From the NCBI RefSeq assembly GCF_003334385.1, contig NZ_QOWN01000005.1: DNA of 64,000 nucleotides. One strand, 5' to 3'. The translations under genes and the position numbers were made by a program. The first letter of the stretch is position 1, and each line of letters starts with the position of its first letter. Positions 10,440 through 60,377 of this stretch are shown one piece after another. Source of the DNA: Escherichia coli. GTDB taxonomy: Bacteria > Pseudomonadota > Gammaproteobacteria > Enterobacterales > Enterobacteriaceae. The notes beneath the pieces are model-generated. The model was not told the DNA's origin, did no database searches, and saw only the letters and a list, made by a program, of their open reading frames with translations.

Positions 10440-11098
10440 ACTTAACTCCACTGTCACACTTAACTCCCTTTCCCTTATTGGAATGCAGAGAAATAATCCT
10501 GAAGAATATGATTTATCATGCATATAAAATAAGAAAAAGCAAAATGAGTAAAATTCGGAAAACATAAAGATACGGGTTCTGATAAAAACAGAATCCATTG
10601 CCGTGGAATGAGTCATTTACCACAGCATAATAATCCATAATATTTTTGTTGCGAAAACAATCTAATCATAACTACCGCGAATACTCAATCATCTACAAAA
10701 TGGATTAAATGTGCTTATTTAATAATTAATTTATATATTTAATGCATTAATTCTTAACATTAATTGATCAATAATATTCACCAAATCAATATCAAAAAAA
10801 ATCGCAAAACATATAATTCAATACAAATCATCAGGATAGGTTTTGCAACGCGTGCATTTTGTCCCCTTTTTCCTCGTTGATTAGATGCAAAAATTTATGC
10901 TGAAATATGTCAACCGATGAAAAGCGTCGGTAGTTAAGCAGAAATTAATATCGCTTACTTTAACCACCGCAGCACAATTAGCTAATTTTACGGATGCAGA
11001 ACTCACGCTGGCGGGACGTTTTTATTGCGTCAGGGTTGACATCCGTTTTTGTATCCAGTAACTCTAAAAGCATATCGCATTCATCTGGAGCTGATTTA
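10440..11098. promoter_or_regulatory. leuO-leuL divergent intergenic region, strongly AT-rich (probable H-NS-bound silencing/promoter-relay region)
   Basis: 659-bp non-coding block; 10680-10860 is almost pure A/T (ttaataattaatttatatatttaatgcattaattcttaacattaattgatcaataatattc); role inferred from established knowledge. Confidence 0.5.
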
Positions 11099-11185
11099 AT
11101 GACTCACATCGTTCGCTTTATCGGTCTACTACTACTAAACGCATCTTCTTTGCGCGGTAGACGAGTGAGCGGCATCCAGCATTAA
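11099..11185 (+). CDS. leuL: leu operon leader peptide (28 aa) with four consecutive Leu codons
   Basis: ATG ACT CAC ATC GTT CGC TTT ATC GGT CTA CTA CTA CTA AAC ... = [28 protein letters not shown], stop TAA 11183-11185. Confidence 0.9.
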
Positions 11186-11208
11186 GCCAGCACGCAGTCA
11201 AACAAAAA

Positions 11209-11236
11209 ACCCGCGCCATTGCGCGGGTTTTTTTAT
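11209..11236 (+). terminator. leu attenuator intrinsic terminator
   Basis: acccgcgc-catt-gcgcgggt hairpin followed by T7 run, between leuL and leuA. Confidence 0.8.
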
Positions 11237-17213: not shown

Positions 17214-17440
17214 AAAAAAAACCAGCAGGTATAATCTGCTGGCGGGTGATTTTACACCAATACTCAGTCACACATGATGCAGGCAAGTCAACTTTCAGAA
17301 TTGCGGTCATCCCACTGCATCAGTCCTTCAAGCATGGTTAATCGTTGTGGGACGCTTAACCAACGCAACCAGCACAACTTCGCTGTCGCGGTAAAATAGT
17401 GCTGATAAAACTGACGCATGGGGCACCCCCTTGCTTCATC
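17214..17440 (-). ncRNA. sgrS: SgrS small RNA (glucose-phosphate stress sRNA, dual-function)
   Basis: Minus-strand 3' end reads ...AAATCACCCGCCAGCAGATTATACCTGCTGGTTTTTTTT (terminator, U8 tail at 17214-17221); 5' end GATGAAGCAAGGGGGTGCCC near 17440; divergent from sgrR; contains sgrT ORF. Confidence 0.85.
17288..17419 (-). CDS. sgrT: SgrT, 43-aa peptide encoded within SgrS
   Basis: C-terminal 43 codons of ORF-track frame 17288..17587: MRQFYQHYFTATAKLCWLRWLSVPQRLTMLEGLMQWDDRNSES, ATG at 17417-17419. Confidence 0.85.
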   Translation of the reverse strand: MRQFYQHYFTATAKLCWLRWLSVPQRLTMLEGLMQWDDRNSES

Positions 17441-17507: not shown

Positions 17508-19163
17508 ATGCCATCTGCTCGTCTGCAACAACAGTTCATCCGCCTGTGGCAATGCTGCGAGGGTAAATCGCAGGACACAACGCTCAACGAACTGGCAGCG
17601 TTATTGAGCTGCTCGCGTCGTCATATGCGCACCCTGCTCAACACCATGCAGGATCGCGGCTGGCTGACGTGGGAAGCGGAAGTCGGGCGCGGTAAACGCT
17701 CGCGTCTGACATTCCTCTATACCGGGCTGGCGCTTCAGCAACAGCGGGCGGAAGACCTGCTGGAGCAGGATCGTATCGATCAACTGGTGCAGTTGGTTGG
17801 CGACAAAGCGACTGTGCGGCAAATGCTGGTTTCTCATCTGGGCCGCAGCTTCCGCCAGGGGCGGCACATCCTGCGCGTGCTCTACTATCGTCCGTTGCGT
17901 AATCTGCTACCTGGCAGCGCATTGCGCCGTTCCGAAACCCATATCGCCCGGCAAATCTTCAGTTCGCTAACGCGCATAAATGAGGAAAATGGGGAACTGG
18001 AAGCAGACATCGCCCACCACTGGCAGCAAATTTCACCGCTTCACTGGCGTTTCTTTTTGCGTCCAGGAGTCCATTTTCACCATGGTCGTGAACTGGAAAT
18101 GGACGATGTGATCGCCTCTTTAAAACGAATCAATACGCTGCCGCTCTATTCGCATATTGCTGACATTGTGTCGCCGACGCCCTGGACGCTGGATATCCAT
18201 CTCACGCAACCGGACCGCTGGTTACCGTTACTGCTGGGGCAAGTTCCGGCGATGATCCTGCCGCGCGAATGGGAAACCCTCAGTAACTTTGCCAGCCATC
18301 CCATCGGCACCGGTCCGTATGCGGTGATTCGCAACAGCACCAATCAACTGAAAATTCAGGCATTCGATGACTTCTTCGGTTACCGGGCATTAATCGACGA
18401 AGTTAACGTCTGGGTTCTGCCGGAAATTGCCGACGAGCCAGCCGGAGGGCTGATGCTAAAAGGTCCACAGGGCGAGGAAAAAGAGATTGAAAGCCGCCTG
18501 GAGGAAGGTTGCTACTATTTACTGTTCGACAGCCGCACCCATCGCGGGGCGAATCAGCAAGTCAGGGACTGGGTAAGCTATGTGCTTTCTCCAACTAATC
18601 TGGTCTATTTCGCTGAGGAACAGTACCAGCAACTGTGGTTCCCGGCTTATGGACTGCTCCCCCGTTGGCACCATGCCCGCACCATAAAGAGCGAAAAACC
18701 GGCTGGCCTGGAAAGCCTCACCCTAACCTTTTATCAGGATCACAGTGAGCATCGGGTGATTGCCGGGATCATGCAGCAGATTCTGGCAAGTCACCAGGTC
18801 ACGCTGAAAATCAAAGAGATCGACTACGATCAGTGGCATACAGGAGAGATCGAAAGTGATATCTGGCTAAACAGCGCCAACTTTACCCTGCCGCTGGACT
18901 TCTCTGTTTTCGCACATTTATGCGAAGTGCCACTGCTACAACATTGCATTCCCATTGACTGGCAAGCCGACGCTGCTCGCTGGCGCAATGGCGAGATGAA
19001 TCTGGCGAACTGGTGCCAGCAACTGGTCGCCAGCAAAGCGATGGTGCCATTATTGCACCACTGGCTGATCATTCAGGGGCAACGCAGTATGCGCGGCCTG
19101 CGCATGAATACCCTCGGCTGGTTCGATTTTAAATCAGCGTGGTTTGCGCCACCGGATCCATGA
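17508..19163 (+). CDS. sgrR: Transcriptional regulator SgrR
   Basis: ORF track starts at TTG 17487; ATG 17508 preceded by aggag gives [20 protein letters not shown] (551 aa); N-terminal HTH plus solute-binding-like domain. Confidence 0.9.
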
Positions 19164-19198
19164 TTGCTGGTTGATAACAAAATCACTACACTAACGCC

Positions 19199-19291
19199 GT
19201 TCTCAACGGGGTGCCACGCGTACGCGTGCGCTGAGAAAATACCCGTCGAACCTGATCCGGATAACGCCGGCGAAGGGATTTGAGGCTCCTT
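19199..19291 (+). promoter_or_regulatory. sroA: TPP riboswitch (THI-box; sroA) in thiBPQ leader
   Basis: THI-box core ggggtgccacgcgtacgcgtgcgCTGAGAaaatACCCgtcgAACCTGATCCGGATAAcGCCGGCGaAGGGA upstream of thiB; boundaries approximate. Confidence 0.75.
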
Positions 19292-19326
19292 CTCAAGTCC
19301 TTTGCCACTCTTTTTTGAGGTGCAAA

Positions 19327-20310
19327 GTGTTAAAAAAATGTCTGCCCCTGCTGTTGCTGTGCACAGCGCCCGTTTTCGCTAAACCCGTTCTGACTGTTTA
19401 TACCTACGATTCCTTCGCCGCCGACTGGGGGCCTGGTCCGGTGGTTAAAAAAGCCTTTGAAGCCGACTGTAATTGCGAACTGAAACTGGTGGCGCTGGAA
19501 GATGGCGTTTCGCTTCTCAACCGTCTACGGATGGAAGGCAAAAACAGTAAAACCGATGTGGTGCTGGGGCTGGATAACAACCTGTTAGACGCCGCCAGTA
19601 AAACCGGACTGTTTGCCAAAAGCGGTGTGGCAGCGGATGCCGTTAACGTTCCCGGCGGCTGGAATAATGACACTTTCGTACCGTTTGATTATGGCTACTT
19701 CGCCTTCGTTTATGACAAGAACAAACTGAAAAACCCGCCACAAAGCCTGAAAGAACTGGTTGAGAGCGATCAAAACTGGCGGGTGATTTATCAGGATCCG
19801 CGCACCAGTACACCGGGGCTGGGTCTGTTGCTATGGATGCAAAAAGTCTATGGCGATGACGCCCCACAAGCCTGGCAGAAACTGGCGAAGAAAACGGTCA
19901 CGGTCACCAAAGGCTGGAGCGAAGCCTACGGCCTGTTTTTAAAAGGTGAAAGCGATCTGGTACTGAGTTACACCACCTCTCCGGCTTATCACATTCTCGA
20001 AGAGAAGAAAGATAACTACGCCGCCGCGAACTTCAGCGAAGGTCACTATCTGCAAGTGGAAGTCGCCGCCCGCACCGCTGCCAGCAAGCAGCCGGAGCTG
20101 GCGCAAAAATTCCTCCAGTTTATGGTTTCTCCGGCTTTCCAGAATGCGATCCCAACCGGCAACTGGATGTATCCGGTGGCAAACGTCACGCTGCCTGCCG
20201 GTTTTGAAAAATTGACCAAACCCGCAACCACGTTGGAGTTCACGCCAGCCGAAGTGGCGGCACAACGTCAGGCATGGATTAGCGAATGGCAACGCGCCGT
20301 CAGCCGTTAA
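19327..20310 (+). CDS. thiB: Thiamine ABC transporter periplasmic binding protein
   Basis: ORF track frame from TTG 19315; GTG 19327 after gagg RBS gives (M)LKKCLPLLLLCTAPVFA signal peptide; 327 aa. Confidence 0.9.
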   Translation: MLKKCLPLLLLCTAPVFAKPVLTVYTYDSFAADWGPGPVVKKAFEADCNCELKLVALEDGVSLLNRLRMEGKNSKTDVVLGLDNNLLDAASKTGLFAKSGVAADAVNVPGGWNNDTFVPFDYGYFAFVYDKNKLKNPPQSLKELVESDQNWRVIYQDPRTSTPGLGLLLWMQKVYGDDAPQAWQKLAKKTVTVTKGWSEAYGLFLKGESDLVLSYTTSPAYHILEEKKDNYAAANFSEGHYLQVEVAARTAASKQPELAQKFLQFMVSPAFQNAIPTGNWMYPVANVTLPAGFEKLTKPATTLEFTPAEVAAQRQAWISEWQRAVSR

Positions 20311-21896
20311 TTCCCGGCTGGTTAATTCCAGGTGTAAGCGCCACCACGCTGGTGGTAGCGGTTGCGCTGGCGGCGTTTCTCGCCCTGTGGTGGAACGCGC
20401 CGCAGGATGACTGGGTGGCAGTCTGGCAGGACAGCTATCTGTGGCATGTGGTGCGCTTCTCCTTCTGGCAGGCGTTTCTCTCGGCACTGCTCTCTGTCAT
20501 ACCCGCGATATTCCTCGCCCGCGCGCTCTATCGCAGGCGCTTTCCGGGTCGGCTGGCGCTGTTGCGTCTGTGTGCAATGACCTTGATCCTCCCGGTGTTG
20601 GTCGCTGTTTTCGGCATTCTTAGCGTCTATGGTCGCCAGGGCTGGCTGGCAACACTCTGCCAATCGCTCGGTCTGGAGTGGACCTTTTCGCCCTACGGCC
20701 TGCAAGGTATTTTGCTGGCCCATGTGTTTTTTAATCTGCCGATGGCGAGCCGCTTATTACTCCAGGCACTGGAAAACATCCCCGGCGAACAGCGTCAACT
20801 TGCCGCCCAGCTTGGGATGCGTAGCTGGCATTTTTTCCGCTTCGTCGAATGGCCGTGGTTACGGCGACAAATCCCGCCGGTTGCTGCGCTTATCTTTATG
20901 CTCTGTTTCGCCAGCTTCGCCACCGTGCTATCGCTGGGGGGCGGTCCGCAGGCGACCACTATCGAGCTGGCAATCTATCAGGCGCTGAGTTACGACTACG
21001 ATCCTGCCCGCGCGGCAATGCTGGCGCTGCTCCAGATGGTGTGCTGCCTCGGGCTGGTGCTGTTGAGTCAGCGATTGAGTAAGGCCATTGCGCCCGGCAC
21101 CACGCTGCTGCAAGGCTGGCGCGACCCGGACGATCGTCTGCATAGCCGCATTTGCGACACGGTGTTAATTGTGCTGGCGCTGCTGCTGTTGCTGCCACCG
21201 TTACTGGCGGTGATCGTCGATGGGGTAAATCGCCAGTTGCCGGAAGTGCTGGCACAACCGGTGCTGTGGCAGGCGCTGTGGACCTCGTTGCGTATTGCGC
21301 TGGCGGCAGGTGTATTGTGCGTAGTGCTGACCATGATGCTGCTATGGAGCAGTCGCGAACTGCGGGCGCGGCAGAAAATGCTGGCGGGTCAGGTGCTGGA
21401 GATGAGCGGCATGTTGATCCTCGCCATGCCGGGGATTGTGCTGGCTACCGGCTTCTTTTTACTGCTCAACAACACTATCGGCCTGCCACAATCTGCTGAC
21501 GGCATTGTGATTTTCACCAATGCGTTAATGGCGATCCCTTATGCGCTGAAAGTGCTGGAAAACCCGATGCGCGATATCACCGCCCGCTACAGCATGTTAT
21601 GTCAGTCGCTGGGGATTGAAGGCTGGTCACGCTTAAAAGTGGTGGAGCTGCGCGCCCTGAAACGTCCACTGGCGCAGGCGCTGGCCTTTGCATGCGTGCT
21701 GTCGATTGGTGATTTTGGCGTGGTGGCGTTGTTCGGTAACGATGATTTCCGCACCCTGCCGTTTTATCTCTACCAGCAAATTGGCTCCTATCGCAGCCAG
21801 GACGGTGCGGTCACCGCGTTAATTCTGCTGCTGCTCTGTTTTCTGCTGTTTACCGTGATTGAAAAACTACCGGGGCGAAATGTTAAAACTGACTGA
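20286..21896 (+). CDS. thiP: Thiamine ABC transporter permease
   Basis: 536-aa polytopic membrane [20 protein letters not shown]; start overlaps thiB end by 25 nt. Confidence 0.92.
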
Positions 21897-22578
21897 TATC
21901 ACCTGGCTTTACCACCATTTGCCGATGCGTTTTAGCTTAACGGTGGAACGCGGCGAGCAGGTGGCGATCCTCGGGCCAAGCGGCGCGGGTAAAAGTACCC
22001 TGCTGAATTTGATCGCCGGTTTTCTGACGCCAGCCAGCGGTTCGCTGACTATCGATGGCGTAGATCACACAACTATGCCGCCGTCACGCCGTCCGGTGTC
22101 GATGCTGTTTCAGGAGAACAACCTGTTCAGCCACCTGACGGTCGCACAGAACATCGGGCTGGGGCTAAATCCGGGATTGAAACTGAACGCGGTACAGCAG
22201 GGGAAAATGCACGCTATCGCCCGCCAGATGGGGATTGATAATTTAATGGCGCGGTTACCGGGCGAGCTTTCCGGCGGTCAGCGACAGCGAGTGGCGTTAG
22301 CGCGTTGTCTGGTACGCGAACAGCCGATTTTATTGCTCGATGAACCGTTCTCTGCGCTCGATCCGGCGTTACGTCAGGAGATGTTGACGCTGGTGAGCAC
22401 GAGCTGCCAGCAGCAAAAAATGACGCTATTGATGGTGTCGCACAGCGTGGAAGATGCGGCGCGGATCGCCACGCGCTCGGTAGTAGTCGCCGACGGGCGC
22501 ATCGCCTGGCAGGGTATGACCAATGAGTTGTTGAGCGGTAAGGCGAGTGCTTCGGCACTATTGGGGATTACGGGTTAG
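21880..22578 (+). CDS. thiQ: Thiamine ABC transporter ATP-binding protein
   Basis: ORF track frame 21859..22578; 232-aa protein from [13 protein letters not shown]; Walker [13 protein letters not shown] signature LSGGQRQR. Confidence 0.92.
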
Positions 22579-27989: not shown

Positions 27990-28415
27990 GTAACACCTGA
28001 TGCGACGCTGACGCGTCTTATCTGGCCTACACGCTGCGATTTTGTAGGCCGGATAAGCAAAGCGCATCCGGCATTCAACGCCTGATGCGACGCTGGCGCG
28101 TCTTATCAGGCCTACGCGCTGCGATTTTGTAGGCCGGATAAGCAAAGCGCATCCGGCATTCAACGCCTGATGCGACGCTGGCGCGTCTTATCAGGCCTAC
28201 GCGCTGCGATTTTGTAGGCCGGATAAGCAAAGCGCATCCGGCATTCAACGCCTGATGCGACGCTGGCGCGTCTTATCAGGCCTACGCGCTGCGATTTTGT
28301 AGGCCGGATAAGCAAAGCGCATCCGGCATTCAACGCCTGATGCGACGCTGGCGCGTCTTATCAGGCCTACACGCTGCGATTTTGTAGGCCGGATAAGCAA
28401 AGCGCATCCGGCACG
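27990..28415. repeat. Tandem array of five ~85-bp BIME units (paired inverted REP sequences) between araA and araD
   Basis: Unit boundaries about 27995/28080/28165/28250/28335; units 2-4 are identical 85-mers (gcctgatgcgacgctggcgcgtcttatcaggcctacgcgctgcgattttgtaggccggataagcaaagcgcatccggcattcaac), units 1 and 5 carry a few substitutions. Confidence 0.9.
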
Positions 28416-60201: not shown

Positions 60202-60377
60202 TGCCGGATGCGGCGTAAACGCCTTATCCAACTCTGCTGGAGAGCAACCGTAGGCCGGATAAGATGCGCCAGCATCGCATCCGGCGATAGCTGTCGGATG
60301 CGGCATAAACGCCTTATCCAACCCGGCTGGAGAGCAACCGTAAGCCGGATAAGATGCGCCAGCATCGCATCCGGCGA
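60202..60377. repeat. Two tandem ~86-bp BIME units (each an inverted REP pair) between convergent caiE and caiF
   Basis: Unit A 60202-60287 and unit B 60292-60377: t(g/t)(c/t)cggatgcggc(g/a)taaacgccttatccaac(t/c)c(t/g)gctggagagcaaccgta(g/a)gccggataagatgcgccagcatcgcatccggcga. Confidence 0.85.

Follow-up and report, generated by a model that had tools for sequence, protein, structure and literature searches.

Introduction

Escherichia coli has three TPP riboswitches, one of which, that of thiB, is a model system for co-transcriptional ligand sensing. The thiM riboswitch resembles it closely, as it belongs to the same aptamer class and acts as a translational OFF switch in which both the Shine-Dalgarno (SD) sequence and the start codon are sequestered and an anti-P1 fold is the alternative; it differs in that the thiM operon encodes a salvage kinase whereas the thiB operon encodes an importer, and in that the GUG start is a feature of thiB. 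The secondary structures of thiM and tbpA (thiB) are very similar according to the authors who studied them (PMC11487190, PMC8609307), and the mRNA-level effect of TPP needs at least 34 codons in thiM versus 12 in tbpA (PMC11487190). The thiC riboswitch is akin to that of thiB in its ligand, its aptamer class, its co-transcriptional sensing bounded by pause sites and the closing of the sensing window by an anti-P1 stem, but it is larger and its Rho-binding region lies within the riboswitch itself.

The element described here is already known, being annotated in RefSeq and treated in three experimental papers (PMC8609307, PMC10578472, PMC11487190). Known as the tbpA/thiB riboswitch and also recorded as SroA RNA, it is the type example, and it belongs to RF00059 by every feature examined. 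Its sequence is the same as the published one and the published numbered nucleotides map onto the window, by which we mean the whole stretch of 64,000 nucleotides analysed, the only discrepancy being the +1 used by two laboratories (19197 vs 19199). The element is almost certainly the E. coli K-12 thiB (tbpA) TPP riboswitch, which forms the leader of the thiBPQ importer operon and switches by the exchange of P1 for anti-P1 and by sequestration of the SD. Its value here is that of a positive control, in which the riboswitch, its gene, the GTG start and the mode of action were recognised from sequence alone, and nothing that we found changes the existing picture of it. What is new is limited to a side observation, ERIC-type repeats in the riboswitch hairpin loops of some Citrobacter, Klebsiella and Raoultella relatives.

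Results and discussion

A full-length TPP aptamer between sgrR and thiB

Scanning the whole window with Rfam 15 gave a match to RF00059 (TPP) at 19197-19296 on the plus strand, with 65.9 bits against a gathering score of 54.3 (E = 1e-10, calculated for the 64-kb window against 4227 Rfam families) and covering model positions 1-105 of 105. This is the covariance-model check that the earlier note had proposed after recognising THI-box motifs at this site, and all of the motifs which it listed were indeed found: CTGAGA at 19231-19236, ACCC at 19241-19244, AACCTGATCCGGATAA at 19249-19264, GCCGGCG at 19266-19272 and AGGGA at 19274-19278. In RefSeq, the 'riboswitch / TPP riboswitch' feature of MG1655 corresponds exactly to 19197-19296; positions 19100-19420 match E. 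coli K-12 MG1655 at 100% identity, and this stretch is present in 5400 of the 5426 complete genomes of E. coli. The three-way junction is present, with P1 closing the two arms P2/P3 and P4/P5 (Table 1), and the aptamer proper, from P1 to P1, spans 19201-19285. Standard base pairs occupy 22 of the 23 pairs of the model, the exception being G19254/A19273, and the sole departure from RF00059 is that P3 lacks the optional extra hairpin which the model has after CUGAGA, those variable positions being deleted.

Table 1. Positions of the features discussed. Coordinates are those of the window, except for the P3 inserts, where leaders of related genomes are named by their alignment handles (L).
Feature	Position	Strand	Basis
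Putative weak sigma-70 promoter of thiBPQ	19164..19192	+	sequence and published start sites
Transcription start per literature	19197 (Berman et al.) or 19199 (Lafontaine lab)	+	published numbering mapped
TPP riboswitch aptamer (THI element, RF00059)	19197..19296	+	Rfam match, RefSeq feature, conserved core
P1	19201-19206:19280-19285	+	model pair list
P2	19207-19210:19242-19245	+	model pair list
P3	19213-19231	+	model pair list
P4	19251-19253:19274-19276	+	model pair list
P5	19257-19260:19267-19270	+	model pair list
Antisequestering (anti-P1) stem, ligand-free ON state	19273..19303 (19273-19285:19291-19303)	+	folding, ortholog pairing, published mutants
Sequestering hairpin, TPP-bound OFF state	19300..19327	+	constrained fold, -11.6 kcal/mol, conserved strands
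Shine-Dalgarno GAGG	19317..19320	+	sequence; published G121C (= 19319) effect
thiB (tbpA), periplasmic thiamine/TPP-binding protein, GTG start, 327 aa	19327..20310	+	RefSeq CDS, TIGR01276
thiP	20286-21896	+	RefSeq annotation mapped to window, ORF list
thiQ	21880-22578	+	RefSeq annotation mapped to window, ORF list
SgrS, divergent from sgrR	17214-17440	-	Rfam, 228.8 bits
Leucine operon leader	11085-11234	+	Rfam, 145.8 bits
REP-type element (Rfam naRNA4), four tandem copies 85 nt apart	28047-28367	+	Rfam
naRNA4, one more copy	60253-60323	-	Rfam
P3 insert, ~125 nt (L004, L012, L030, L042, L048, L049, L057, L068)	between GGGGTGC and CTGAGA, e.g. L030:1215-1345
P3 insert, ~65 nt (L063, L065, L075)	between GGGGTGC and CTGAGA
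P3 insert, ~55 nt (L080)	between GGGGTGC and CTGAGA
P3 insert, ~25 nt (L009, L011, L014, L016)	between GGGGTGC and CTGAGA

For comparison with relatives we used 80 ThiB loci, all from Enterobacteriaceae, from a scan of one genome per species, and 70 distinct leaders were aligned. When more distant orthologs were sought by a word-indexed protein search, the matches listed all had at least 84% identity. The two ligand-sensing sequences, CUGAGA at 19231-19236 on the pyrimidine-sensor side and ACCUGAUCYGGNUAAYGCCRGCG...AGGGA at 19250-19278 on the pyrophosphate-sensor side, were invariant or nearly so among these 70 orthologs. We regard it as next to impossible that the THI box matches by chance or is a decayed copy without function, a reading which is opposed by the full-length match above the curated threshold (E = 1e-10), by an aptamer core which is unchanged in 70 orthologs, by the thiamine transporter gene directly downstream and by the function demonstrated in published experiments.

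The claim that the aptamer fills the sgrR-thiB spacer holds only in part. The aptamer does lie within the spacer, but it does not take up the whole of its 163 nt (19164-19326; sgrR ends at 19163 in the RefSeq annotation mapped to the window), and the first ~33 nt must hold the promoter. Directly after the sgrR stop codon we noticed a putative promoter with TTGCTG at 19164-19169, a 17-nt spacer and TACACT at 19187-19192, while a promoter consensus scan gave none at threshold at the thiB leader; the natural promoter here has been reported to give low expression without TPP regulation (PMC11487190). When +1 is set at 19199, the published G35, G121, U130 and C144 all fall on the right letters in the window, and when it is set at 19197 the published strands 5-9, 85-89 and 95-99 read UCUCA, UGAGG and UCUCA, respectively. 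The start sites of the two laboratories are thus two bases apart and the positions in one paper are +2 relative to the other, and 19199, from which the earlier note began the element, coincides with the +1 of the Lafontaine laboratory.

Start codon of thiB

The genes thiB, thiP and thiQ make up the regulated operon, with the aptamer 30 nt upstream of thiB on the same strand. The ORF from GTG 19327 scores 645 bits against TIGR01276, the thiB equivalog of NCBIfam (cutoff 317), and six bases separate GAGG at 19317-19320 from GTG at 19327-19329. Mutations described by Grondin et al. (2024, PMC11487190) bear directly on these positions, as G121C (19319), which destroys the SD, left expression low and unregulated, and U130A (19328), which kills the GUG start, abolished expression; G35C (19233), in the binding site, abolished regulation, and the 30S toeprint at C144 (19342, +16 from the start) was about 2.2-fold lower with TPP. 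The assignment of the thiB start to GTG 19327, made earlier from the letters, is thereby borne out by the RefSeq CDS, TIGR01276, U130A, the toeprint and a GTG which is invariant in 70/70 orthologous leaders, and that of the gagg ribosome-binding site (RBS) to 19317-19320 by the sequence together with the published G121C effect.

TTG 19315, the first start codon of the mechanically listed ORF, was considered as the thiB start and rejected, as it is not conserved (the codon at 19315-19317 is TTG in only 33 of the 70 orthologs and a stop in three), and U130A and the toeprint fix the GUG. As a separate observation, in 7/70 orthologs the codon 12 nt upstream of the GTG is an in-frame ATG which overlaps the SD (ATGAGG), from which a 4-residue N-terminal extension could result.

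Alternative folds of the expression platform

The helices of the platform were worked out here independently of the published structural details. In the sequestering hairpin CUUUGC (19300-19305) pairs with GCAAAG (19322-19327), the last base of which is the G of GUG, and GAG of the SD (19317-19319) pairs with CUC (19308-19310); when the aptamer was enforced in fold prediction, G119-G121 of the SD (19317-19319) and G129 (19327) were predicted to be paired with p > 0.96. Berman et al. (2023, PMC10578472) likewise placed the SD in a 'sequestering stem', and in their hands the TPP response was broken by a mutation that made the RBS pair less strongly. The idea of translational control by RBS sequestration is upheld by the Rfam match, the RefSeq annotation and published experiments on the same sequence. 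Two details of the earlier note needed correction. It had put the SD directly downstream of the expression platform, and the SD and GUG are in fact inside the platform hairpin 19300-19327. It had also suggested looking for pairing of the RBS with the aptamer 3' strand, but both strands read UUGAGG and are identical, not complementary; the aptamer 3' strand pairs instead with the linker in the ligand-free state.

This second pairing is the anti-P1 stem, which joins the 3' strands of P4 and P1 to the linker UCUCAAG and the first bases of the sequestering hairpin. The unconstrained fold contained a 9-bp anti-P1 core of GAUUUGAGG (19277-19285) with UCUCAAGUC (19291-19299), and extended to 13 bp (-15.5 kcal/mol) the stem uses the P4 3' strand as well as the four bases, 19300-19303, with which the sequestering hairpin begins. 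SHAPE-Seq models without TPP likewise contain an extended antisequestering stem (PMC10578472). The switch is built from two 6-nt sequences that each occur twice in exact copies: UCUCAA as the P1 5' strand (19201-19206) and as the linker 'invader' (19291-19296), and UUGAGG as the P1 3' strand (19280-19285) and in the SD region (19315-19320). Break-and-rescue mutations in the P1 5' strand, the P1 3' strand and the linker turned the switch OFF or ON as predicted; furthermore, the 3' half of the linker (nts 95-99 = 19291-19295, UCUCA) was essential, leaving the switch constitutively OFF when deleted or randomised, whereas the 5' half was dispensable (PMC10578472).

Among the 70 leaders, which come from many Enterobacteriaceae genera, little or no change is seen in the aptamer core, the linker CTCAA, CCTTTGCC and AGGTGCAAAGTG, and the loops of the anti-P1 stem and of the sequestering hairpin differ both in length and in sequence; the linker half that varies is the one found dispensable by mutagenesis, and the conserved half is the essential one. 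Aptamer pairs hold in 97.6% of ortholog cells, most columns never varying, the anti-P1 stem is paired in 94% of cells, with changes on a single side only, and the sequestering hairpin in 95%, its lower stem being invariant in 70/70, while controls in which the partner strand was slid gave 26-62% compatible cells as against 94-97% for the named helices. As the columns are invariant, this high compatibility is conservation and not covariation, and the 70-leader alignment gave no covariation for the platform helices. The sole informative pair is C19310:G19317, which is CG in 59 leaders, UG in 7 and UA in 4, so that a double change is seen in 4/70.

The duplications also allow another pairing, in which the linker UCUCAAG (19291-19297), freed when P1 forms, would itself sequester the SD by pairing with UUUGAGG (19314-19320); the linker copies the P1 5' strand and the SD region copies the P1 3' strand, and seven pairs are possible. 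We consider this reading very improbable. Such pairing adds only -3.7 kcal/mol compared with -11.6 for the local hairpin, it is compatible in 74% of ortholog cells versus 95%, and in the four genomes with a G-to-A change in the SD it is broken, whereas the partner in the local hairpin goes from C to U. Moreover, the leaders with the linker 3' half deleted or randomised are constitutively OFF (PMC10578472), which argues that sequestration has no need of the linker. On the strength of the G-to-A orthologs and the constitutively OFF linker deletion we rejected the linker as SD sequestor and retained the local hairpin. Berman et al. describe the linker as having no complementarity to the sequestering stem; it is, yet, complementary to the SD, in a pairing which is weak and unconserved.

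The calculated energies were -45.6 kcal/mol for the 9-bp anti-P1 with an intact sequestering hairpin, -39.5 kcal/mol for the bound-type fold and -35.8 kcal/mol for the extended anti-P1 with a free SD, which places the SD-free structure 9.8 kcal/mol above the best ligand-free structure. The probability of an unpaired SD was 0.20-0.25 in the free, anti-P1-enforced and aptamer-enforced ensembles alike. Nearest-neighbour energies did not reproduce a clean ligand-dependent exposure of the SD, and the SD hairpin stayed in every ensemble; that the SD is more exposed when TPP is absent is accordingly taken from the toeprint and probing experiments in the literature. In published reporters TPP lowered expression 2.3-3.9-fold (PMC11487190), which, like the 2.2-fold effect on the toeprint, is modest. 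This is consistent with a kinetically controlled, rather leaky switch, as it is described in the papers (2- to 4-fold).

Proposed mechanism and its timing

The part of the mechanism which comes from the present analysis is the identity of the aptamer, the positions of all the strands, their complementarity and their invariance in relatives. In the model that we favour, the nascent leader folds the TPP aptamer P1-P5, and TPP, if bound while RNA polymerase is between roughly +104 and +117, locks P1 and P4. The linker is then left single-stranded and the hairpin 19300-19327 forms; as both the SD (GAG) and the first base of GUG are paired in it, binding by the 30S subunit is lowered (OFF). When TPP is absent, P1 is invaded by UCUCA (19291-19295) of the linker, which repeats the P1 5' strand, and this invasion grows into the 13-bp antisequestering stem 19273-19285:19291-19303. 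The four bases at the start of the sequestering hairpin are drawn into that stem, so that the hairpin would be destabilised and the SD exposed (ON). We infer that this four-base overlap, 19300-19303, couples the formation of anti-P1 to the release of the SD.

What published work has shown is the dependence on TPP, the identity of the SD and of GUG as the start, the toeprint, the competition between P1 and the invader and the co-transcriptional sensing window. Polymerase pause sites were mapped at 83, 104, 117 and 136, i.e. window positions 19281, 19302, 19315 and 19334, in EC-117, the complex in which transcription is stalled at position 117, the Kswitch was 362 nM, and the anti-P1 stem, on forming, closes the sensing window (Chauvier et al. 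2021, PMC8609307). TPP is also sensed better during transcription than afterwards (PMC11487190).

Control at the mRNA level

A transcriptional riboswitch with an intrinsic terminator was considered and rejected, as there is no G+C-rich hairpin followed by a U-run and only full-length product was obtained in vitro (PMC10578472). No terminator-like site was found when 18900-19500 was searched, and the U-run at 19311-19316 lies in a hairpin loop and not after a stem.

Control could also be exerted mainly, or additionally, at the mRNA level, with TPP leading to Rho-dependent termination or RNase E decay in early thiB, either through blocked translation or independently of it, and two laboratories disagree on whether such control exists (PMC11487190 vs PMC10578472). 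Transcriptional lacZ fusions were repressed 1.6- to 3.9-fold by TPP, and 2.4-fold repression remained in a mutant with a dead GUG (PMC11487190); in addition, RNAP ChIP in a strain with rho R66S gave thiB a score of 3.0 for Rho termination (PMC5499598), compared with 12 for thiC. Against this, bicyclomycin left the repression unchanged and in vitro transcription yielded full-length product only, both with constructs holding only 4 thiB codons (PMC10578472), and 18900-19500 has no site resembling an intrinsic terminator. The SD mutant, likewise, showed no mRNA-level regulation, which implies that the effect depends on the ribosome-binding site. We hold mRNA-level control to be possible, while leaning somewhat against it, and it is best seen as a layer added to translational control and not as a replacement for it.

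A possible role of the leader fragment in trans

A stable SroA transcript was reportedly detected by Vogel et al. in 2003, and the leader fragment, as the SroA small RNA, might also regulate in trans, beyond its cis control of thiBPQ. In favour of such a role, the tbpA regulator has been predicted to take part in small-RNA regulation and antibiotic tolerance in Salmonella (PMC8609307), and Salmonella with sroA deleted showed a slight yet reproducible loss of fitness in mice (PMC2698986). The mouse phenotype, however, could stem from deregulated thiBPQ in cis, and there is no terminator-like site to define the 3' end of a discrete small RNA, so we regard a trans role as rather unlikely. A stable SroA fragment released from the leader is kept as a long-shot candidate for a trans-acting small RNA of thiamine status, and, separately, we give similarly little weight to an mRNA-level route which would act through ribosome docking at the SD without translation. 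Cis control by SD sequestration is the reading that we retain.

ERIC-type repeats in the hairpin loops of related leaders

A dispersed repeat is inserted in the apical part of P3 in several genomes of Citrobacter, Klebsiella, Raoultella and Pseudocitrobacter; its length differs between leaders (Table 1), and the rest of the riboswitch is unchanged. The core of the repeat, GTGAATCCCCAGGAGC...GTGACTGGGGTGAGCG, is what we take to be the ERIC consensus, and copies of the repeat with 60-87% identity lie in unannotated DNA of E. coli, the median being 13 places per genome. A literature search by title gave none pointing to an ERIC element inside a riboswitch. The repeat folds as one long hairpin which continues P3 (144 nt, -65 kcal/mol, vs 20 nt in E. 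coli). The 125-nt inserts push the aptamer below the Rfam gathering score, and annotation pipelines would thus miss these leaders, while those with shorter inserts still pass.

A different arrangement was noticed in a Pluralibacter sp. metagenome-assembled genome (MAG; L064:1380-1470), which retains only the last ~20 nt of the aptamer and the whole platform, with unrelated sequence replacing everything upstream of GGCGAAGGGA. As P1 cannot form without the upstream part of the aptamer, this switch would be locked ON; either a genuine rearrangement or an error of metagenome assembly could account for it.

In Citrobacter amalonaticus S646 (L028:1139-1470) and C. braakii ATCC 51113 (L039:1123-1450) the P3 repeat is itself split by a further insertion of ~76 nt at repeat positions 94/96, which brings P3 to about 230 nt, and neither leader gave an Rfam match. 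Lastly, the leader of Citrobacter sp. wls619 (L010:1346-1503) has, besides the P3 copy at 1142-1272, a second and reversed copy of the repeat (L010:1364-1475, 69% identity), which, flanked by CCTTTGCCACC and ATGAGGTGCAAAGTG, occupies the apical loop of the sequestering hairpin; each of the two insertions is confined to a hairpin loop, and the pairing strands are intact.
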